Origin: Nitrososphaeraceae archaeon
GTDB lineage: Archaea > Thermoproteota > Nitrososphaeria > Nitrososphaerales > Nitrososphaeraceae
Assembly (NCBI GenBank): GCA_035250975.1
Contig: DATFEP010000044.1
Coordinates: 1 to 17,397 of the forward strand
DNA: 17,397 nt
Direction of reading: 5' to 3'
Shown here piece after piece: positions 1,459 to 17,397 of this stretch. Below the pieces are notes generated by a model. That model ran no database searches, was not told where the DNA came from, and saw only the letters and a program-made list of their open reading frames with translations. Position 1 is the first letter of the stretch, and every line of letters begins with the position of its first letter. Both the position numbers and the translations under genes were made by a program.

Positions 1459-2310
1459 ATGAAAGGAGGAGAGCGAGTGGTCTTAGTAACGGGGGCATCA
1501 AGTGGAATAGGATTCGAAACTGCTGTACTATTAGCTAGAAACGGTTTCATGACGTATGCAACCATGAGAAATCCAGATAAATCCACAAGATTATCAGAAC
1601 TGGCAAATAAAGAAAAACTAGACATAAAAATTAGAAAACTAGATGTCAATGATGAAACTGGAATAAACGAAACTATCGATCAAGTAATATCAGAAACAGG
1701 TACAATAGATGTACTTGTAAATAATGCAGGATATGCTATTTTCGGAGCACTTGAAGATACCGCTTTGGACGAGATAAGAGAACAATTTGAAACAAACTTT
1801 TTTGGACCTGTCAGCACTATCAAGGCGGTAATACCAATAATGAAAAAGCAAAATGGCGGCAAGATAATAAATTTAAGTTCTATGGTAGGCAGATTTGGCG
1901 TACCTTTCAATTCTGCCTACGTAGCTAGTAAATTCGCATTAGAGGGAATTACGGAATCTATAAGATATGAATTACATGATTATAATATTAAAATTATTTT
2001 AGTGGAACCTGGCATAATCAAGTCACATTTTTTTCAGAATATTAAACTATCAAACAAATCGACTTCTAGCTATTCCAAATTATTAAAAAAGAGAATGGAA
2101 GGCATAGAAACTATGTTAAAAAAAGCTACTCATCCAGTAACAGTAGCTGAAGTAATATTAGATATAATTAATTCGAGGTATACAAATATACGATATCTTG
2201 TAGGTCATGATGCTGAATTCATGATTAAATTAAAGAAAAATGCTACAGAAGAAGAATTTGAAGACCGGCTGAGAAAAACTTTTTCAAGTGGTAAAGGATA
2301 TATCAACTAA
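1459..2310 (+). CDS. Classical short-chain dehydrogenase/reductase (SDR)
   Basis: TGASSGIG Rossmann motif, NNAG, catalytic Ser region (NLSS), YVASK (YxxxK) and VEPG; 283 aa. Confidence 0.95.
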   Translation: MKGGERVVLVTGASSGIGFETAVLLARNGFMTYATMRNPDKSTRLSELANKEKLDIKIRKLDVNDETGINETIDQVISETGTIDVLVNNAGYAIFGALEDTALDEIREQFETNFFGPVSTIKAVIPIMKKQNGGKIINLSSMVGRFGVPFNSAYVASKFALEGITESIRYELHDYNIKIILVEPGIIKSHFFQNIKLSNKSTSSYSKLLKKRMEGIETMLKKATHPVTVAEVILDIINSRYTNIRYLVGHDAEFMIKLKKNATEEEFEDRLRKTFSSGKGYIN

Positions 2311-3275: not shown

Positions 3276-3315
3276 ATGGCTATGACAAGACCTATGGCTA
3301 TCACAAGACCTATGG
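3276..3315 (+). repeat. In-frame 18-bp tandem repeat at the start of the SPFH gene
   Basis: ATGGCTATGACAAGACCT ATGGCTATCACAAGACCT ATGG, encoding MAMTRP MAITRP M. Confidence 0.85.
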
Positions 3316-4268
3316 TTGACTCAAATGATACAGTAGTTAGTAGAAGAGGGGCTAGCGGTTTATTTATTGTTGGAATTGTTGTCATTATTATTGGATTTGG
3401 AATAGGATTTTTTTTAATTTATGATAATACAGTTGAAATCTTATCGGTAATAATAGGAATTGTATTGATTATTTCGTCATTTATTTTTATAATCAAACAG
3501 TATGAAAGATCGATTATCTTGAGATTAGGAAAATTTACTAAACAAAGAAATCCTGGCATCCATAGCAGAATTCCATTTATTGATAACGTACTTGTAGTAG
3601 ATATAAGAGAAAAAGTTAGAGAATTTAATGCTGAAAGAATGTTGACAAAAGATAATGTTCCAGTTACAATCGATGCAATATTGAGATACAAAATTATTGA
3701 AGAGAGAACTAAAGATGCTATATTAAATGTAGAAAATTTTAATGAAATGATAAAACAGGTTTCACAAACTACTTTACGAAATAACATTGGTTCATCTTTA
3801 TTCCAAGATATATTATCTAAAAGAGAGGAAATTAATTACCATATCAAATCTATAATATCAAATGAGGCAAGTAATTGGGGAATTGAAGTTACAGGTGTAG
3901 AGATTCGCCAGGTAATCATACCACAAGAATTAGAGGCTGCTATGTCGAAACAAGCACAAGCTGAAAGAGAGAAAAGTGCGAGGATTACATATAGTGAATC
4001 AGAGGTTCTAGTTGCAAAAAAATTCGACGAGGCATCCAAAGCCTATGCAAATAACCCAATTGCCTATGCCTTAAGACAATCCAATATGTTATTTGAATCA
4101 ATAAAAGTTCAAGGAAACACCATAGTAATGGTGCCTTCGGAAAGCTTGAATTCTATGGGATTTGGAAATTTAGCAATGACTGTTGCATATCTAGAGAACA
4201 CAAAAAAAGCTGCGACTTCCAAAGAACAAACAGAAAAGGATATTGAAATAAATAAAATCAAAGAATAG
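3276..4268 (+). CDS. SPFH/band-7 (stomatin/slipin-like) membrane protein
   Basis: Two N-terminal hydrophobic helices, then QYERSIILRLGKF, LTKDNVPVTIDA, QTTLR, WGIEVTGVEIR and AMSKQAQAERE, all typical band-7 motifs. Confidence 0.95.
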   Translation: MAMTRPMAITRPMVDSNDTVVSRRGASGLFIVGIVVIIIGFGIGFFLIYDNTVEILSVIIGIVLIISSFIFIIKQYERSIILRLGKFTKQRNPGIHSRIPFIDNVLVVDIREKVREFNAERMLTKDNVPVTIDAILRYKIIEERTKDAILNVENFNEMIKQVSQTTLRNNIGSSLFQDILSKREEINYHIKSIISNEASNWGIEVTGVEIRQVIIPQELEAAMSKQAQAEREKSARITYSESEVLVAKKFDEASKAYANNPIAYALRQSNMLFESIKVQGNTIVMVPSESLNSMGFGNLAMTVAYLENTKKAATSKEQTEKDIEINKIKE

Positions 4269-4634: not shown

Positions 4635-5618
4635 TTGTTTAAGGATCTTTCAAAAAATAGAATAGATAATAAAAAGCCGCGAAAAGAGGGTTTAACTTAC
4701 ATTATAGACAAACTATCATCACTTGATAAAGATACCTTTGAAATTTTATCACCAGAAATAGATATGGTAAAAATTTACAATGTATTTCCATTATTAATGT
4801 CAGAATCTCAATTAGCAAAACGAATTACCTTCTATCATGATCTAAATATTCCTGTATCCACAGGAAGCACATTCGCAGAATATGCTATAATGAATAAATC
4901 ACTTGACAATTTTGTAAAAGATGTTTCTAAGATGGGATTTGACATCATAGAGATAGGAGAAAGTCATGTAGACTTGACTCTGGAGCAGAAAGAAAAAATC
5001 CGTGAAATGATATTATCCAATAGCTTAGAGATCCATTGGAAAATAGGAAAAAAGGATCCACGCCATCAACTTGGAGTAAGCACCATAATTACAAAGATAG
5101 AGGAGGCAATAAAAGTTGGAGCAAATAAAATAATTTTAGAAGCCAATCAGGGATATAATGTAGGCATATATGATGAAAACGGTCTAGTAAAATGGACTTT
5201 TATTAGAGCCATTACAGCTAAGTTTCCACCAAGTACATTTATTTTTGAAGCTCCTCTTGAATCTCAACAATCTGCATTATTAGCCGAATTTGGTGAACGA
5301 GTGAATCTGTCAGAAATAGGAATAGAATTTCTGGCATCAATAGAATCGCAAAGATTAGGATTTTTATCTAAATCAAGTTTCAGTTTAACATATCTTAAAC
5401 CACCAGATGGTGGACCAGCATTAAAGTTTGTGTATTATATAATCAAAAATAAAAATCCAATAGATCAAACAGAATTGATCAATCTAACTCATATGCCAAG
5501 AAGAACTGTTCAGAGTGCGTTGGATGAACTTTTATCTCAGGGTCTGATATCTGAAAGGTCAAGTTTAGATGATGCAAGAAAAAGAGTATATTATCCTATT
5601 CAATCTGATTGGCTTTAG
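4635..5618 (+). CDS. ComA (phosphosulfolactate synthase)-like TIM barrel fused to a C-terminal MarR-like winged HTH
   Basis: aa 1-245 carry ComA-family motifs KPRKEGLTYIIDK, IDMVK, GST, EI, GKK, IILEA, GIYD, IFEAP..SQQ, FG..VNL and ESQRLG. aa ~261-321 (PALKFVYYII...QTEL...MPRRTVQSALDELLSQGLI...DARKRVY) form an archaeal MarR-type wHTH. TTG start. Confidence 0.9.
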   Translation: MFKDLSKNRIDNKKPRKEGLTYIIDKLSSLDKDTFEILSPEIDMVKIYNVFPLLMSESQLAKRITFYHDLNIPVSTGSTFAEYAIMNKSLDNFVKDVSKMGFDIIEIGESHVDLTLEQKEKIREMILSNSLEIHWKIGKKDPRHQLGVSTIITKIEEAIKVGANKIILEANQGYNVGIYDENGLVKWTFIRAITAKFPPSTFIFEAPLESQQSALLAEFGERVNLSEIGIEFLASIESQRLGFLSKSSFSLTYLKPPDGGPALKFVYYIIKNKNPIDQTELINLTHMPRRTVQSALDELLSQGLISERSSLDDARKRVYYPIQSDWL

Positions 5619-5778
5619 ATTCAGTTCTTATTTTCGTACACATATGAACTATTTTCTTGAAACTATCAATATTTGCTGGTTGTAATTTATCGGTAATAGA
5701 TGTTATGCCCTCTTGACGTGGCTTTTTAACATCTGTATGTTCTAAAGCTAATATTTTGTTAAACATTAATTTTGACAT
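5596..5778 (-). pseudogene. Truncated N-terminal fragment of a second ComA-like paralog
   Basis: KKPRQEGITSITDKLQPANIDSF aligns with KKPRKEGLTYIIDKLSSLDKDTF of the neighbour. Similarity is lost after ~45 aa and the ORF runs 23 bp into the 3' end of the comA-HTH gene. Confidence 0.75.
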
Positions 5779-5799
5779 CCTTTAATGGTTATAAATTAA

Positions 5800-5807
5800 T
5801 TATTAAA
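5800..5807 (-). promoter_or_regulatory. Putative TATA box (TTTAATAA) for the comA-like fragment
   Basis: Lies 22-29 nt upstream of the ATG at 5778 on the minus strand. Confidence 0.35.
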
Positions 5808-6132
5808 TAGGCAGAAAATGGATCATATGCAAAAGTTACGTGTATAGTACTAAATAATTTTCTATAATAAAATTTGTACCGTTGTAATATTTTAGAAATT
5901 GAATAAAGGCATGAATGATGTAAGTTTTAATATTTAGTTTTTTTAAAAAATAAAATTTTTAATTCATTAAAATGGGGAAGGATTATCTTTCTTTACAATA
6001 ACAATAATCTAAAAAAAAGCTATTAGACTTGCTTATTGAACTTCTCTTATTGGATGCCAATTTTACATATATTTGAATTTTTAAGCACATTTGAATTGAA
6101 TTAAATATAATGAGATGTAATCAAAGGAAAAG

Positions 6133-6918
6133 ATGTACTGCAAAAATGATTATTCCAACCCGAAAGTATACCTGGATTTAAAAGAAGTATCTAAAAATTT
6201 TTTATATACAAATTCTAATAGGATGAACGTTGTATTAGAAAATGTAAATGTTCAAATTTTAGATGGTGAATTTGTTACAATTCTAGGGAAATCGGGTTGT
6301 GGGAAGACTACACTCCTTAATATAATTGCAGGTTTTGAAAATTCATTTGGTGGAGAAATACTACTTGACGGACAACCAATTCGAAATATTAGTCCAGATA
6401 TGGTAATGTTATTTCAAGAATCTGCGCTTTTTCCATGGCTTACATCCTTCCAAAACATAGATGTTGCCTTGAAAATGGCAAAGATTCCAAAGGATCAAAG
6501 AGAACAAATAATAAAACACTACTTGAAGATTGTTGATTTAACGGATTATTCGCATTCATATATTCATCAACTTTCAGGAGGCATGAAACAACGAGTCTCT
6601 CTGGCTAGGGCGCTCGCGTTAAATCCTAAAATTTTACTTATGGATGAGCCATTTGCTGCTTTAGATATTTCAATTAAAAACTCTCTTTACAAAGAGCTTT
6701 TAGAGTTACATAAAAAAACTAGAAAAACAATACTATTCGTAACTCACAATATTAACGAAGCTGTATTGTTGGGAGATAGGGTTATATTAATGTCTCCAAA
6801 ATTATGCAGTATAAAGAAAGAGTATATTATTGATATGCCTAAGGATGAAAGAATCAATAATCCAAATATCAAAAATTTAATTGACCAAATTACCTTGGAT
6901 TTATATGAAAATGAATAA
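6133..6918 (+). CDS. ssuB: ABC transporter ATP-binding subunit, NitT/TauT (SsuB/TauB-like) family
   Basis: Walker A GKSGCGKT, FQESALFPW, signature LSGGMKQR, Walker B LLMDEPFAALD and H-loop FVTHNINEA. Confidence 0.9.
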   Translation: MYCKNDYSNPKVYLDLKEVSKNFLYTNSNRMNVVLENVNVQILDGEFVTILGKSGCGKTTLLNIIAGFENSFGGEILLDGQPIRNISPDMVMLFQESALFPWLTSFQNIDVALKMAKIPKDQREQIIKHYLKIVDLTDYSHSYIHQLSGGMKQRVSLARALALNPKILLMDEPFAALDISIKNSLYKELLELHKKTRKTILFVTHNINEAVLLGDRVILMSPKLCSIKKEYIIDMPKDERINNPNIKNLIDQITLDLYENE

Positions 6919-6947
6919 ACAAGACTTGACGCTGGAGACTAGAAAGC

Positions 6948-7772
6948 TTGGAATCACAAATACAAAGTAGTAAAAAAAAATATAATCTAAGTAAAAGCAT
7001 AGTAAACAAGGATACATTAAGTTTAATAATTTTTATCGTAGGTTTCTTAGCTCTATGGCAATTAGTTTACATGTTAGAAATATGGCCAAAAGTATCTCTA
7101 CCATCGCCGTTTGCGGTGGGACAGACAATTGTAGATTTATTATTGGATTTCACATTAGTTAAAGGTACAGCGATTTCACTATGGAGGTTATTTTTAGGTT
7201 TTCTAATGTCTATTTCAATAGGATTAATTGTAGGTTTGATCATGGTCAAGTTTTTACATTTTGGAAAAACTATGAGTTCATTTGCTTTAGGTTTGCAGTC
7301 ATTTCCAAGTATTGCTTGGATTCCATTTGCTATTTTATTAATAGGCTTTAACGATTATGGAATATTGTTCGTAGTTGTTATGAGTTCTGTTTTTTCAGTT
7401 ATGCTCTCAACGTATAGTGGGATTCAAAATATTTCTCCAATATATATAAAAGCTGCCAAGAATATGGGTGCAAAGGGATTTTCATTATTTAGATATGTAT
7501 TGATCCCTGCTGCCACTCCTTCTTTGATTATAGGTATGAGGCAGGCATGGTCATTTGCTTGGCATGCATTAATTGGTGCAGAAATGCTAATAACAACCCT
7601 TGTCGGATTAGGTCACATATTATCCGTAGGAAGAGAATTCTCTAATATGAGTCAAATAATTGCAACCATGTTGGTTATATTTGCAATAGGTTTAGTCTTT
7701 GATAGATTCGTGTTTTCAAAAATCGAAGAAAAGGTGCGCAATAGATGGGGACTAAATCAGCAGCAGAATTAA
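6948..7772 (+). CDS. ssuC: ABC transporter permease, NitT/TauT (SsuC/TauC-like) family
   Basis: About six hydrophobic helices, LPSP, QSFPSIAWIP, EAA-like loop KAAKNMGA and W..LIGAE. Confidence 0.9.
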   Translation: MESQIQSSKKKYNLSKSIVNKDTLSLIIFIVGFLALWQLVYMLEIWPKVSLPSPFAVGQTIVDLLLDFTLVKGTAISLWRLFLGFLMSISIGLIVGLIMVKFLHFGKTMSSFALGLQSFPSIAWIPFAILLIGFNDYGILFVVVMSSVFSVMLSTYSGIQNISPIYIKAAKNMGAKGFSLFRYVLIPAATPSLIIGMRQAWSFAWHALIGAEMLITTLVGLGHILSVGREFSNMSQIIATMLVIFAIGLVFDRFVFSKIEEKVRNRWGLNQQQN

Positions 7773-8056
7773 TAATAATATTTTCAAAGAAAATTTATTT
7801 ACTAATAATAAATGGTTAATAGATGATATTAGATATGACCTTGATAAATATTATGTCACGATTACAGTAAATTATGTTTATAAAATATATTATTTATTCT
7901 ATTTATTCGCAGATTCAGTATAGATACATATCTTGACTTGAAAACAATAACCTTCAAATGCTATCCTATTGTTCTCAAGATTGTCTACTCAATTTTTTAG
8001 TTAGTTAATGGAAAAAAATGCATATAAATGTCAAATTATGCGTATTCAATAGCATT

Positions 8057-8064
8057 CTTATATA
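8057..8064 (+). promoter_or_regulatory. Putative TATA box (CTTATATA) for the substrate-binding protein gene
   Basis: Lies 20-27 nt upstream of the ATG at 8084. The 311-bp gap after the permease suggests a separate promoter. Confidence 0.4.
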
Positions 8065-8083
8065 GATTTTACCTTGTTTATTT

Positions 8084-9157
8084 ATGCACAAAAAAATTAG
8101 ATCCAGTGAAAATGCAATCCTGTTGATTAGTCTAGCAGTAATGATCCTTTTTCCAATATTACAACAATCATTTTCTCAGACAGGGGATAAAAAAATATTA
8201 AGAATTGGTTATTTCCCGAATATCAATCATGCTCAAGCAGTAATAGGAATAGGAAATGGAGATTTTCAAAAAGTATTAGGTAATAATATTGAAATTAAGT
8301 CTCTTGTATTTAATGCAGGTCCTTCTGCAATAGAAGCGTTATTTGCCAAACAAGTCGATGTTACATATGTCGGACCAAATCCAGCTATTAACGGATATGT
8401 TGTGTCAGGTGGTGAAGATATTAGGATAATATCAGGTGCCTCTAGTGGAGGAGCAGTATTCATTATTAGAGCTGATTCAGGTATAGAATCTACCAAAGAT
8501 TTTGCAAATAAGAAATTTGCATCGCCTCAACTAGGTAACACTCAAGACGTAGCGTTGAGAACTTACCTATTAGATAATGGATTTAAGACGACAGAAAATG
8601 GTGGAAATGTTACCGTTTTACCTGCAAAGAATCCAGATATAGTAACATTATTTCTGAAAAAGGAGATTGATGGCGCATGGGTTCCAGAGCCGTGGGGAGA
8701 ACGATTGATTAAAGAAGCTAACGGAAAATTATTCTTGGATGAACGTGATTTATGGCCTGATGGAAAATTTGTAACTGGTCTAATTGTTGCAAGATCCGAA
8801 TATCTAAAACAGAATCCTGATGTGATCGAAAAATTTCTTAAAGCTCATGTAGAAGAGAGTCAATGGATAAATAATAATAAAGAAGAAGCAGTAAAGGCTT
8901 TTAATACTGAACTCAAGAAGTTAACTGGACAGACAATACCAGAAGACACCTTGAAAGAATCATTGACAAGGCTCGAACTAACTTATGACCCCATACAACA
9001 ATCTCTATACAAATCGGCTAATGATGCTTTTGATATAGGATTTCTTGGAAAAACAAAACCTGATCTTTCTAATATATTTGATCTAAATATACAGAACAAA
9101 ATATTAGAAGAAAAGGCTGTAGTTAGCATAAATAGTACGACTAGTAACATATCCTAA
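8084..9157 (+). CDS. ssuA: ABC substrate-binding protein, aliphatic-sulfonate SsuA family
   Basis: Signal/anchor helix, then LRIGYFPNINHAQA, FNAGPSAIEAL, YVGPNPAIN, ASPQLGNTQDVALR and DGAWVPEPW, resembling Bacillus-type SsuA. Confidence 0.88.
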   Translation: MHKKIRSSENAILLISLAVMILFPILQQSFSQTGDKKILRIGYFPNINHAQAVIGIGNGDFQKVLGNNIEIKSLVFNAGPSAIEALFAKQVDVTYVGPNPAINGYVVSGGEDIRIISGASSGGAVFIIRADSGIESTKDFANKKFASPQLGNTQDVALRTYLLDNGFKTTENGGNVTVLPAKNPDIVTLFLKKEIDGAWVPEPWGERLIKEANGKLFLDERDLWPDGKFVTGLIVARSEYLKQNPDVIEKFLKAHVEESQWINNNKEEAVKAFNTELKKLTGQTIPEDTLKESLTRLELTYDPIQQSLYKSANDAFDIGFLGKTKPDLSNIFDLNIQNKILEEKAVVSINSTTSNIS

Positions 9158-9165
9158 AAATAGGT

Positions 9166-9384
9166 TTGCTGTCAATGTTACATAGGACAAATACAACAAC
9201 ATTAAAAAATCTTGCTGGAAAGATACTTTCTGTCATCTTTCCAGTTTTTTCCTTGTTATTCCTGTCATTTCTTTTCGTAGTAACTATTTACGAAACTTGC
9301 ACCAATGATCATTCAAGTGAAAAAACCTATCAACTAGAACTTTGTAAAAAATATGGAGTACTTCAAATGGATGATTGTCTATAA
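9166..9384 (+). CDS. Possible small membrane protein
   Basis: Starts 8 nt after the ssuA stop and has one hydrophobic segment plus three Cys; no recognised motif, may be spurious. Confidence 0.25.
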   Translation: MLSMLHRTNTTTLKNLAGKILSVIFPVFSLLFLSFLFVVTIYETCTNDHSSEKTYQLELCKKYGVLQMDDCL

Positions 9385-10157: not shown

Positions 10158-11366
10158 TTGAAACTGAATAATTATAATATTGTTTATTTAATAATCATAA
10201 TTGTTACTTTATCTTCTATCCTAATATACAATACTAATTTTAATTTAAAAAGAGATCTTTCTAATCAATATGAGACTTTATTAGATTTCAATAGTCATAA
10301 CAAAAAAGCAGACGCAGTAGAATTTTCAGATAATGCAGAAAATACATTCGAGTATATCCTTGACATATCTGAATATTTAGGATTTAAGGGTTCTAAAAAT
10401 ATAACCGGTTCTGATAACGGTGATGGAAAAAATGATACTAAATCGATAATAGCATTTGATAGACTTGAATCCAATGATGATGATGAAAATTCAGAGTCAA
10501 AAAGGGAAAAAGAATCTAACCATAAATCAGATTTTAATTTTGTAGCTGTAGGAGATTGGGACTGTAAATCTGAAACTAAAGATACTGTGGAAAACATTTT
10601 GGACCATGACCCAGAAGTGGTTCTGGCACTAGGAGATCTTTCATATAATGGTAACGCAGAATGTTGGCTGGATATAATTGAACCAATATCAGAGAAAACT
10701 AAAATTGCAATAGGTAATCACGAAACTGATTCATCAAAAATTTTGAGAGATTATATGCAATATTTCGACTTAGAGAAACAATATTATTCTTTTAATTATA
10801 AAAATATTCACTTCATAGGATTATCTACAGAAATTCCATATGAAGAAGGATCAAAGCAATATGAATTTGTTGTACAGGACCTTAAAAAGTATTCTAAAGA
10901 TCCATCTATTGACTGGATTGTTGCATTTTTCCATAGACAAGCATACAGTTCCGGAGGAGGTCCAGATGATGAGGATGATTTTACAGAAACATATCATCCA
11001 TTGTTTGGTAAATTCAATGTGGTTCTGGCTTTACAAGGACATTTTCATGCATATGAAAGGTCATATCCAATTACTTTTAACAGCGAAGACGAAGGTAAAC
11101 CGATTGTAACTAATACAGACCCCAATACCTACATAAATCCGAAGGGAACAATTTTTGTAACTGCAGGAACTGGAGGAGCACATGATATGAAGATTTCAAA
11201 AAGTAAACCATATTCAGCTTTTGGATTAGACGGCGAATTTGGAATAGTAAATATTTCTGTGGAGAATGATGGAACCGTATTAAAAAGTTCATTTATAGAG
11301 AATAACGGTGACGAAGACGAATATGACCAGTTTGAGATCATTAAAGGAAAAATGAAAAATAAATAA
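10158..11366 (+). CDS. Membrane-anchored or secreted calcineurin-like metallophosphoesterase (purple acid phosphatase-like)
   Basis: N-terminal hydrophobic helix, acidic linker, metal motifs GDWD, GDLSY, GNHE, FFH and GHFHAYERS, plus VTAGTGG. Confidence 0.93.
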   Translation: MKLNNYNIVYLIIIIVTLSSILIYNTNFNLKRDLSNQYETLLDFNSHNKKADAVEFSDNAENTFEYILDISEYLGFKGSKNITGSDNGDGKNDTKSIIAFDRLESNDDDENSESKREKESNHKSDFNFVAVGDWDCKSETKDTVENILDHDPEVVLALGDLSYNGNAECWLDIIEPISEKTKIAIGNHETDSSKILRDYMQYFDLEKQYYSFNYKNIHFIGLSTEIPYEEGSKQYEFVVQDLKKYSKDPSIDWIVAFFHRQAYSSGGGPDDEDDFTETYHPLFGKFNVVLALQGHFHAYERSYPITFNSEDEGKPIVTNTDPNTYINPKGTIFVTAGTGGAHDMKISKSKPYSAFGLDGEFGIVNISVENDGTVLKSSFIENNGDEDEYDQFEIIKGKMKNK

Positions 11367-14757: not shown

Positions 14758-15173
14758 TTAAAAAATAAATATATTTAGTTCTAAAATCTGAGATAGAAAT
14801 ATAGTACCTGCAACTATAGCTAGAACTATTCCTATTAATTTTTTAAGAGTTGCTGGACTAAGACGATTTGTATATCTTGCTCCAAGAAACCCACCAATCA
14901 TTGCGGAAGGTCCTAAAATAATTAAATAAATTCACTTCATTGCTAACCACATGACCAATGACCAATAAATTCAAATGTGCCCATAATTGCTGATGTAACC
15001 ATATTAGTGCCAACTGCTATCTTTGGTTCAGTTTTAAGAATTTTTATCATTACAGGAAGTCTTATACTACCAAGAACAAGACCCACCATTCCGCCTATAA
15101 AACTAATGATGAATCCAACAGAGGATAAAACTAAAACACCAAATAAATCCAGCTCAATACTGAAAGTTAACAA
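14758..15173 (-). pseudogene. Frameshifted TauE/SafE (TSUP) sulfite-exporter-like gene, about half normal length
   Basis: GFIISFIGGMVGLVLGSIRLP...EPKIAVGTN...IGH, then after a frameshift IYLIILGPSAMIGGFLGARYTNRLSPATLKKLIGIVLAIVAGTIFLSQILELNIFIF* (stop 14758-14760). A 7-bp duplication ATGACCA x2 at 14951-14964 sits at the break. Confidence 0.8.
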
Positions 15174-15598
15174 TACTTAGAATATAAAGTTATTTGATTT
15201 ATGATTAGGACTAAAAAAATAAATATATGTTAACAATTTGCTTTTCAAATAAAGACAATATTTCTAAAACCTGGACTAGTGTTTGAAGATATATGTAATA
15301 TTTTGATTCTATTTTTAGTACCAATATTATATTGAGTAACCTTTCCAAACGACTATGATTATTATCAACATTATAAGAAATAAAAAAAAGTTCAATTTGA
15401 TATTTGAAACATATACTTTCTTTTGATGAATCCAAAGTTGTACTTTTGATTTCAACTGTTTTAGCAGTCCTAACAACTATAGACGAAATAAAGTTGATGA
15501 AAACAATACAAATATTTGAGATTTACATACCACAGATTTATTTTTTGACAAAATAGGCAATATAACCTAGATTAATTTCAGTAGAAATGGAACCACTA

Positions 15599-16654: not shown

Positions 16655-17397
16655 TTATTGTTTATAGCCACCGTAGGATAATAGAAATACTTGACCTGTT
16701 GTATTGAATTTGTTATCGGTGTATGCTTTTTCGACTTCTGATAAGGTCAAGGGCCTGTCCCATACTCTGATTTCGTCGATATCACCTGTAAAGAATTTGT
16801 CTAGATTCATGGAATTAGCTCCAATTCTCAGTGGTTGAGTACCAGTGTTATCTATCGTTGCATTATTGGTGGCTAGTTTTCCTATTTCATTTCCATCTAC
16901 ATAAAGAGACACAGCTGACCCATTAAATGTAACAGCAGCATGATGCCATTTCCCGTCATTATATTTATTTGGTGTCTTCACAAAGAAATTATCTCCTGAC
17001 GTTGCTTCAAAACCTCCTTCTACTTCATTATTATCTGTAATCCATAGCCCGTAATTCATGTTCATTCCTGTTTCGTCGGTACCCATTCCTCCTTTGTTTA
17101 CCATATGGCCAGGTTCGGTATAATTTTGAGATGTTTTAAACCAAGAAACTATGCTGAATTTAGTCAATTGTGGCGAAAAGTTATCTGGAAGGTCCTGAAA
17201 TTTTGAATCTTTAAGTGTGATAAACGGCTCATACTGATATTTTCCTGTAACATTCGCTGGCAACACTGCTGTTGCATTCGCTGGCAACACTGCTGTTGCA
17301 TTCGCTGGCAACACTGCTGTTGCATTCGCTGGCAACACTGCTGTTGCATTCGCTGGCAACACTGCTGTTGCATTCGCTGGCAACACTGCTGTAGTGT
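16655..17397 (-). CDS. LamG/concanavalin A-like surface protein, 5' end outside the window
   Basis: FSIVSWFKT, NDGKWHHAAVTFNG, LYVDG, LRIGAN and FFTGDIDEIRVWDRPLT are LamG_3 motifs. The frame stays open to the window edge, so the listed start at 17386 is probably an artefact. Confidence 0.92.
   Translation of the reverse strand, partial: TTAVLPANATAVLPANATAVLPANATAVLPANATAVLPANATAVLPANVTGKYQYEPFITLKDSKFQDLPDNFSPQLTKFSIVSWFKTSQNYTEPGHMVNKGGMGTDETGMNMNYGLWITDNNEVEGGFEATSGDNFFVKTPNKYNDGKWHHAAVTFNGSAVSLYVDGNEIGKLATNNATIDNTGTQPLRIGANSMNLDKFFTGDIDEIRVWDRPLTLSEVEKAYTDNKFNTTGQVFLLSYGGYKQ
17251..17392. repeat. Perfect 24-bp coding tandem repeat (5 full units plus 22 bp)
   Basis: Unit CATTCGCTGGCAACACTGCTGTTG on the plus strand, encoding TAVLPANA repeats on the minus strand. 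Confidence 0.97.

Follow-up and report, generated by a model that had tools for sequence, protein, structure and literature searches.

A ComA-type barrel fused to a winged helix as a candidate regulator of an SsuA-family importer in soil ammonia-oxidising archaea

Introduction

Why would a soil archaeon carry a gene for a coenzyme M-type enzyme fused to a DNA-binding domain, and why does this gene lie beside an importer of the sulfonate transporter type? The question is raised by a 17,397-bp stretch of DNA, here called the window, which is the whole of contig C52 of a 2.49-Mb genome (94.6% complete, about 30% G+C). The nearest named relatives of its proteins are from Nitrososphaeraceae, the soil ammonia-oxidising archaea. 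Its central gene encodes a 327-residue protein in which the triose-phosphate isomerase (TIM) barrel of ComA, or phosphosulfolactate synthase, precedes a C-terminal winged helix-turn-helix (wHTH); an ATP-binding cassette (ABC) importer with an SsuA-family binding protein follows. Phosphosulfolactate synthase joins sulfite to phosphoenolpyruvate (PEP). As far as we know, a target, an operator or a signal has been established for very few of the specific transcription factors in ammonia-oxidising archaea.

A first-pass annotation, made from the sequence alone, had read this region as a sulfur-responsive regulon comprising the fusion gene, a convergent truncated paralog, a sulfonate importer across a 354-bp spacer and a TauE-like remnant about 5.6 kb further on. 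Each of these features is where it had been placed: the spacer is exactly 354 bp (5779-6132), the remnant begins 5.6 kb past position 9157, and, as had been noted, the window lacks comB/C/DE and ssuD/tauD, with no match to these families among the 23 open reading frames (ORFs) scanned. Here we consider what the fusion protein does. We think it reasonably probable that it is a one-component regulator whose ComA-derived sensor controls the adjacent SsuA-family importer in a sulfur-related context.

Results

Features of the module

The elements on which the argument turns are as follows.

4635-5618, plus strand: ComA-wHTH type-1 gene, 327 amino acids (Pfam, AlphaFold model); proposed one-component regulator
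5596-5778, minus strand: 60-residue ORF, stump of a type-2 ComA-wHTH paralog (BLASTP, alignment with relative G016)
5619-5652, no strand: about 33 nt of retained G016-like downstream sequence, ending at the deletion junction at about 5647-5652
5826-5844, no strand: decayed 19-bp inverted repeat by the type-2 promoter, with 3 of 19 positions different from G016
6053-6069, no strand: operator-like 17-mer GATGCCAATTTTACATA, 3 mismatches to the palindrome consensus
6101-6110, plus strand: TATA-like box TTAAATATAA (direct reading; conserved promoter block)
6133-6918, plus strand: ABC ATPase, SsuB/TauB-like, NitT/TauT family (Pfam ABC_tran)
6948-7772, plus strand: ABC permease, SsuC/TauC-like (Pfam BPD_transp_1)
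8084-9157, plus strand: SsuA-family substrate-binding protein (TIGR01728 above cut-off; structural model; Foldseek)

A ComA barrel joined to a winged helix

Residues 12-244 of the fusion protein match Pfam ComA (PF02679) with 204.6 bits against a cut-off of 25.2, and the barrel finds Methanocaldococcus jannaschii ComA (1QWG) by sequence with an E-value of 1.6e-26. The AlphaFold model (predicted local distance difference test score, pLDDT, 85.2) retrieves the same structure in Foldseek (E 4.7e-19, target-normalised template modelling (TM) score 0.85), together with Bacillus subtilis YitD (1U83, TM 0.85). With both, the window protein shares the TIM barrel, the Pfam family and many invariant residues. 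The model places the barrel at residues 1-245, a low-confidence linker at 247-254 and a winged helix at 261-321, built from helices 261-272, 278-285 and 289-301 and strands 305-309 and 317-321 with pLDDT 84-93. By profile, a MarR_2/MarR-like wHTH at residues 267-316 scores just under the cut-offs (MarR_2, 25.9 bits against 27; MarR, 21.5 against 24.6); some homologs carry a precomputed PF12802 match, and the G042 copy scores 27.8. Pfam and the structural model thus bear out the fusion gene of the first reading.

Type-1 orthologs are 52-66% identical across the family, and one with 61% identity to the window protein is found in the cultured Nitrososphaera gargensis. When 19 family members are aligned, 24 columns are invariant and 13 of these lie at residues 259-319. 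The linker and winged helix are therefore the most invariant stretch of the protein.

Loss of a conserved loop in the barrel

A wider alignment of 111 members, made up of 99 of the 150 listed representatives (those of at least 235 residues) and 12 from the window and the mapped loci, separates barrels with and without the wHTH. An E-[GAS]-R-E loop (full motif E-[GAS]-R-E-x-G) is present in 56 of the 79 rows lacking the wHTH. It is kept in 13 of the 32 wHTH rows, including those of G050, G058 and G042, and is gone in the other 19. The type-1 clade of the window has EAN(Q/E/L)-G at this place together with a one-residue deletion, the window itself reading EANQ-G. The changed positions align with R170 and E171 of the M. 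jannaschii enzyme (counted from the alignment), for which we infer a catalytic role. The type-2 paralog has also lost the GKK motif and part of FEAP. The window barrel retains the family-wide invariants D25, D43, E106, GKK 138-140, E169, E205, QQ, N224 and R240.

In a barrel tree (quick IQ-TREE, midpoint root, support from the Shimodaira-Hasegawa-like approximate likelihood ratio test), a branch with support 96 separates all 31 retained wHTH rows, and with them three rows without the wHTH of which at least two look truncated, from the other 75 rows without it. Type 2 branches from within the type-1 clade, its stem measuring 1.06 substitutions per site. Such a topology would fit a fusion that arose once, lost the loop later and gave rise to a fast-evolving duplicate.

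On TIGR03849, the NCBIfam equivalog for phosphosulfolactate synthase, the fusion scores 157 bits against a cut-off of 280. ComB (PF04029) and ComC (PF02615) have no match in the 94.6%-complete genome, where ComDE was not searched, and five relatives, among them the ones whose loop is canonical, gave no ComB match. No coenzyme M or sulfolactate pathway is therefore recognisable. The genome does encode ATP sulfurylase and sulfite reductase. Taken together, the lost loop, the sub-cut-off equivalog score and the missing ComB and ComC matches are best read as those of a sensor rather than an enzyme.

Two further architectures came to light. At C56:54791-55801 on the minus strand, the same genome encodes a 337-residue NAD-kinase-like protein (GGDG and TPTGSTAYS motifs by eye) with a C-terminal winged helix of the ComA-wHTH type. 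Its wHTH match recurs in proteins of about 330-395 residues in most of the relatives searched across the order, and it may represent a second enzyme-wHTH fusion family of these archaea. Separately, six ComA barrels of 490-526 residues (P0152, P0165, P0213, P0216, P0235 and P0259) have the canonical loop and a C-terminal extension of about 235 residues that is not a wHTH and might be another pathway enzyme.

Linkage to the importer across relatives

Sixty relatives were searched with the fusion protein and the binding protein, a barrel match requiring an E-value of at most 1e-30. A barrel-containing ComA-wHTH match was found in 31, of which 28 also have an SsuA match, and in 21 of these 28 the two genes lie within 5 kb on one contig. 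Synteny with ssuABC, singled out at first pass as a sign of a real module, is thus conserved. The linked genomes span seven genera (g1, g2, g3, g4, g5, g16 and g27) in three families (f1, f4 and f15). The other seven genomes with both genes do not have them on a shared contig. In two the contigs are too short to judge linkage (G005 and G031), a third has a fragment of an ssuC-type permease beside the regulator at a contig edge (G001), and the remaining four are G030, G032, G034 and G036. Pseudogene fragments adjoin ssuA in G021 and G033.

We mapped 20 loci from 19 of the 21 linked genomes by tblastn; they were selected for a shared contig, so the arrangements are not frequencies. The usual layout in the genus is ssuA downstream of a type-2 regulator, the pair being divergent from ssuB and ssuC, with the type-1 copy a few kilobases away. 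In G028 the regulator is followed by ssuA, and in G039, G027 and G050 it is divergent from ssuA, with ssuB and ssuC following. The persistence of linkage through differing gene orders favours selection over inheritance of a single block.

Other neighbours of the regulator, identified by Pfam, also belong to sulfur metabolism. The unlinked regulator of G030 adjoins a TusA-like gene and is followed by a double-rhodanese gene; in G058, from another family, an ATP-sulfurylase gene is divergent from the regulator; rhodanese genes stand beside the type-1 copies of loci L034 and L038; and a rhodanese-metallo-beta-lactamase fusion follows ssuA in G028. These neighbours are a sulfur connection that is independent of the name SsuA.

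Genes for Cys-rich DUF326 proteins and SIMPL genes also recur near the module. The former encode a DUF326/Csp1-like four-helix bundle (sub-cut-off NCBIfam match), as at L032:8436-8789 (G016), L037:6825-7241 and L038:10972-11388.

A truncated paralog and a deletion

The convergent 60-residue ORF shares 23 bp with the 3' end of the fusion gene and matches no family in Pfam or NCBIfam. It resembles the N-terminus of the fusion (18 of 37 residues identical, E 2e-07 by BLASTP), and its residues 1-51 are 72.5% identical to the N-terminus of an intact 329-residue ComA-wHTH paralog in G016, a relative whose type-1 protein is 97% identical to that of the window. These likenesses mark it as a genuine gene stump, not a chance ORF, and so uphold the earlier call of a truncated paralog. 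The first 44 or so codons (approximately 5650-5778) are the type-2 remnant; the others continue past the junction, antisense to the last part of the type-1 gene. The ORF is probably non-functional.

In G016 the order is type-1 gene, a 216-residue ORF of unknown function, a 117-residue Cys-rich DUF326/Csp-like gene, a 141-residue ORF, the type-2 gene on the opposite strand and then ssuB-ssuC-ssuA. Past the type-1 stop codon, the window has about 33 nt of G016-like sequence, a short microhomology at about 5647-5652 and then paralog codons from about 44 down to 1. Relative to G016, about 4.8 kb is deleted. A 721-nt contig from an independent metagenome DNA run of another study (X2) covers 5055-5775 without a gap, so the junction is a natural one and was not created by assembly. 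In a third close relative, G019, the paralog was removed by a different deletion that left the 216-residue ORF in place. Because the two deletions differ, the paralog has been lost twice in this species-level group.

A palindrome at regulator and importer promoters

A search for motifs in orthologous promoters had been suggested at first pass, and a palindrome of 17-19 bp, about TATGCAAAWTTTGCATA, does recur at the promoters of regulator and importer genes. The intergenic regions between type 2 and ssuB are strongly diverged among members of the genus and have two blocks in common. Beside the type-2 promoter stands a 19-bp inverted repeat that is perfect in G016, TATGCGAAAGTTACGCATA. The window copy at 5826-5844 differs from it at 3 of 19 positions and G019 has lost the repeat entirely, a decay that would be expected if selection was relaxed after the paralog was lost. 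A related element lies about 65-85 nt upstream of ssuB, such as TATGCAAATTTTACATA in L038; in the window this is the 6053-6069 site, centred some 72 nt before the start codon of ssuB, a position conserved in the genus. Upstream of type-1 genes, a 17-bp palindrome is exact in L036 and L038 (TATGCAAAATTTGCATA and TATGCAAATTTTGCATA), with related forms in G027, G026 and G025.

We counted matches to a two-spacing consensus in 20 module loci (262,194 bp). At up to three mismatches there are 39, of which 21 fall in module-adjacent intergenic DNA (16% of bases) and four more adjoin a regulator gene at a contig edge (25 in total); at up to two mismatches all 13 are module-adjacent. The count is circular because the consensus came from the same loci. 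In 19 unrelated loci of the same genus (63 kb), used as a control, two matches were found at up to three mismatches and none at up to two.

Across the genome, one match has one mismatch and five have two, compared with 2.1 +/- 1.0 in shuffled sequence, and five of these six best matches lie inside unrelated coding genes. The remaining intergenic match, at C23:62132, is upstream of an LLM-family gene, an F420-dependent glucose-6-phosphate dehydrogenase-like member of TIGR03557 and not SsuD; we rejected this match as chance, as the motif is not conserved before the orthologs in 19 other loci. The genes for ATP sulfurylase and sulfite reductase are not preceded by any operator-like site. With no genome-wide enrichment, the regulon proposed at first pass appears to be local.

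The ssuB ATG follows the centre of a TATA-like box (6101-6110) by about 28 nt, and the promoter block around this box recurs in every ssuB upstream region examined. By its spacing, the ssuB mRNA would be leaderless or nearly so. The palindrome lies about 44 nt further upstream. In archaeal promoters, activators bind at such an upstream position more typically than repressors do, and we infer that the site acts in activation. An Rfam scan of the whole window, with E-values up to 1, returned no matches, so no riboswitch accounts for the long spacers.

Operator-like sites with three mismatches were also seen directly upstream of the DUF326 genes of L037 and L038, as well as within the stretch of G016 that the window has lost.

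The importer and its ligand

The binding protein, the only SsuA_fam gene of the genome, passes TIGR01728 with 199.1 bits (cut-off 163.5) and begins with a membrane anchor or signal sequence. Its best sequence match in the PDB is Escherichia coli TauA (E 5.4e-08). Structures of TauA, and of SsuA from three bacteria, take eight of the top nine Foldseek ranks for its model (pLDDT 84.7), followed by binders of thiamin, bicarbonate, pyrimidine, pyrroloquinoline quinone (PQQ) and nitrate. Identity to the solved TauA and SsuA proteins is 16-20%. The narrower equivalog models fall below their cut-offs, with 34.5 bits against 299 for SsuA (PRK11553), 52.7 against 304 for TauA, 156.7 against 395 for SsuB (PRK11247) and 98.9 against 347 for SsuC. 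The ATPase is below the cut-off of every NCBIfam equivalog, and public sources name the binding protein just as NitT/TauT family. The NCBIfam names SaoA and SaoP, offered for the ATPase and permease, were also below cut-off and were rejected as uninformative; Sao is an unrelated selenoprotein-associated system.

TauD has no match in the genome. The best match to SsuD (TIGR03565) scores 69 bits against 518 and is among six generic LLM matches, and a Pfam scan of 69 neighbourhood ORFs found no SsuD, TauD or other recognised desulfonating enzyme. A sulfonate is the leading guess for the ligand, judging from family and fold. The sulfonate substrate of the first-pass annotation thus gains from the SsuA_fam membership and from TauA and SsuA as nearest structures, and loses by the low identity and the lack of SsuD and TauD matches.

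In many members of the genus a gene for a class-I S-adenosylmethionine (SAM) methyltransferase of about 295 residues lies directly 3' of ssuA, often followed by a dienelactone-hydrolase-family gene (SAM methyltransferase at L034:13024-13914, L037:205-1092, L038:4563-5450, L039:3113-3988, L040:4248-5153 and L049:3660-4571); the window has no such gene after ssuA. Directly 3' of ssuA in the window is a 72-residue ORF (9166-9384, plus strand) that is about 71% identical in G016 and G019 and has no family match in Pfam or NCBIfam.

Contigs from two soil metatranscriptome studies (X15 and X16) contain parts of comA-wHTH, ssuB, ssuC and ssuA with 92-99% likeness. They are a weak hint of expression and are not counted as proof, because DNA carry-over is possible. 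The stump is among the stretches that these contigs leave uncovered, and no conclusion follows from that. One 182-nt contig of X16 covers intergenic positions 5924-6104, a region that holds the operator-like site and is upstream of each of the two predicted promoters; its source could be carried-over DNA or a transcript missing from the annotation.

The TauE remnant and the flanking genes

The first-pass annotation had grouped the TauE-like remnant with the module, and this did not hold. Its two pieces, 14943-15176 and 14758-14931 on the minus strand, are in different frames, match profile positions 129-186 and 196-235 of 237, respectively, and score 30.4 and 27.6 bits against a PF01925 cut-off of 32.6; the remnant as a whole spans no more than positions 124-235, and the N-terminal half is missing. 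G019 has an intact 277-residue ortholog at the same place (L033:16610-17443). We rejected TauE as a module member because unrelated genes intervene, 18 loci from other species have no TauE match and three intact paralogs exist elsewhere in the genome. The remnant is an unrelated decaying gene.

The remaining features of the window are as follows.

1459-2310, plus strand: SDR oxidoreductase, followed by a 110-residue ORF of unknown function
3276-4268, plus strand: SPFH/band-7 protein, upstream of the ComA-wHTH gene
10158-11366, plus strand: metallophosphatase (purple-acid-phosphatase-like)
between the metallophosphatase and the decayed TauE, minus strand: uracil-DNA glycosylase-family gene and CBS-domain gene
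14758-15176, minus strand: decayed TauE/SafE C-terminal half (sub-cut-off profile matches, frame-shifted)
at the contig end: cation-efflux (CDF) gene and LamG-domain gene

The metallophosphatase has an acidic low-complexity N-terminal region and is 64% identical to a 489-residue G016 ortholog, compared with 94-97% for neighbouring genes; it looks like a fast-evolving surface protein. The LamG/concanavalin-like protein (16655-17397, minus strand) starts with at least six tandem eight-residue units, LPANATAV, which continue off the end of the contig. The repeat probably broke the assembly.

Discussion

We propose a model where the ComA-type barrel would serve as the ligand-sensing domain and the C-terminal winged helix would bind the 17-19 bp palindrome at the promoters of ssuB, ssuC and ssuA. 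In most relatives the same palindrome also marks the promoters of the regulator genes themselves. The effector may be a sulfur metabolite that resembles the substrates or product of ComA, such as sulfite, PEP or a three-carbon acid bearing a sulfonate or phosphate group, and the regulator is probably tied to sulfur status. Two paralogs are the norm in the genus, of which the fast-evolving type 2 is head-to-head with ssuB. As the deletion of about 4.8 kb left only some 44 type-2 codons, type 1 alone would remain to control the importer in the lineage of the window.

Several observations weigh against this model. The MarR_2 score of the window protein is slightly below the Pfam cut-off, and the retained barrel invariants may leave room for residual catalysis. 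We obtained the palindrome consensus by eye, using the loci that then served for the count; many of those loci are close kin from one genus, and the motif is AT-rich. The ssuB site of the window itself has three mismatches, and the genome holds 33 such matches compared with 31.4 in shuffled sequence; upstream of the type-1 gene of the window no site was found at up to four mismatches. Nor is the pairing of genes universal. The 1.5 kb around the regulators of G030, G032, G034 and G036 contain no ssu gene. G042, G055 and G058 have the regulator and no SsuA; G044, G048 and G059 have no regulator, and their SsuA is more distant (39-42% identity).

Three other explanations can be offered. The regulator-importer pair may be real and unrelated to sulfonates, the importer carrying another NitT/TauT ligand (nitrate, bicarbonate, a pyrimidine or thiamin precursor, PQQ or phosphonate) and the barrel sensing, for example, PEP. 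The 16-20% identity to solved sulfonate binders, the closeness of thiamin, bicarbonate, pyrimidine, PQQ and nitrate binders in the fold ranking, the SsuA, TauA, SsuB and SsuC scores far below cut-off, the generic public names and the failure to find a desulfonating enzyme in the genome or among the 69 neighbourhood ORFs would all fit. We nonetheless hold this unlikely, since TIGR01728 is passed, TauA and SsuA supply eight of the top nine folds as well as the best sequence match, the regulator is otherwise found near sulfur genes (rhodanese, TusA, ATP sulfurylase and a rhodanese-metallo-beta-lactamase fusion), and the sensor domain descends from a sulfite-using enzyme. It is somewhat harder still to accept that the protein is a bifunctional enzyme-regulator, making phosphosulfolactate or performing a related sulfite/PEP reaction (for sulfite detoxification or a sulfonated metabolite) while the wHTH merely autoregulates, as in BirA or PutA. 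Its barrel does match ComA strongly and keeps most of the invariant acidic and basic residues; sulfite is an internal intermediate where ATP sulfurylase and sulfite reductase are present; and with the E-x-R-E loop kept in 13 of 32 wHTH rows, the ancestral fusion may well have been catalytic. The clade of the window, however, has EANQ and a deletion in the loop, type 2 has no GKK and only part of FEAP, the TIGR03849 score is 157 bits against 280, and no ComB or ComC was found to pass a product on.

It strikes us as highly improbable that the genes are adjacent only because their order was inherited, with no bearing on regulation, and that the palindrome simply reflects AT-rich intergenic DNA. 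Most linked genomes do come from one family, and the AT-rich motif, its circular consensus and the lack of genome-wide enrichment are what such an account would lead one to expect. Against it, linkage survives at least three gene orders and three families, the palindrome holds its promoter positions while the flanking intergenic DNA has diverged, it decays where the paralog is deleted (three changes in 19 bp in the window, complete loss in G019), and the same-genus control loci have no match at up to two mismatches. A regulator with a ComA-derived sensor, acting on the neighbouring importer, is the reading that we retain.

It is tempting to go further and speculate that ComA-wHTH is the sulfur-status regulator of soil ammonia-oxidising archaea, one that senses sulfite inside the cell, or a sulfite-PEP adduct made in the vestigial active site of the barrel, and turns on an organosulfonate importer when reduced sulfur is low. 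In this full form the proposal is doubtful. If true, soil Nitrososphaerales would use organosulfur via a desulfonation route that is still unrecognised, as neither SsuD nor TauD was found, and the family would record a stepwise conversion of enzyme to sensor, from the canonical loop through its loss to the scrambled type 2.

Known systems resemble the module in part. Compared with the ComA enzymes, the window protein adds a C-terminal winged helix, has the EANQ loop, is below the equivalog cut-off and comes without a recognised ComB or ComC, and the present host, unlike M. jannaschii, is not a methanogen. The ssuEADCB and tauABCD systems of E. coli have the same ABC importer family, with an SsuA-family binding protein, and supply the TauA and SsuA type of nearest structures. 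Here, by comparison, no SsuD/SsuE or TauD was found, the ligand is putative and the candidate regulator is a ComA-barrel/wHTH fusion. Bacterial sulfonate regulators are the LysR-type CysB and Cbl.

In design the fusion is closer to one-component regulators with enzyme-derived sensors, such as MocR/GabR (aminotransferase fold and wHTH) and archaeal GfcR. As in that class, an enzyme fold and a helix-turn-helix share one polypeptide, the gene lies beside its targets and the operators are palindromic (candidate operators here). It differs in that the sensor is a ComA barrel, a fold not described for such sensors in the literature searched, the helix-turn-helix is C-terminal and the family forms a gradient from canonical loop to lost loop. 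ThiR, RbkR, BirA and NadR are further regulators with enzyme-derived sensor domains. A non-coenzyme M role for a ComA-family protein has a parallel in plant HSA32, a ComA-like heat-stress protein in an organism without coenzyme M; HSA32 itself is not fused to a DNA-binding domain, and its biology has no relation to that of the module.

The accessible literature on phosphosulfolactate synthase deals with methanogens, bacterial coenzyme M, plant HSA32 and surveys. No ComA-domain regulator is among the top-ranked literature matches, in a search that left out most subscription-journal papers, and no paper in that body, again mostly without subscription journals, contains both 'phosphosulfolactate synthase' and 'Nitrososphaera'. 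A ComA barrel as the sensor of a regulator, and a specific set of regulator, operator and target in ammonia-oxidising archaea, both appear to be new. Existing annotation names the ComA-wHTH homologs 'phosphosulfolactate synthase', which probably misstates their role and wrongly hints at coenzyme M chemistry in these archaea.

In a broader context, the module offers a testable trio of regulator, palindrome and transporter, and the ComA barrel would join the enzyme folds that have been recruited as sensor domains of regulators. Organic sulfur is the main sulfur pool in soils. Whether nitrifying archaea in soil import organic sulfur, with no known desulfonating enzyme, is a question that the module brings up.

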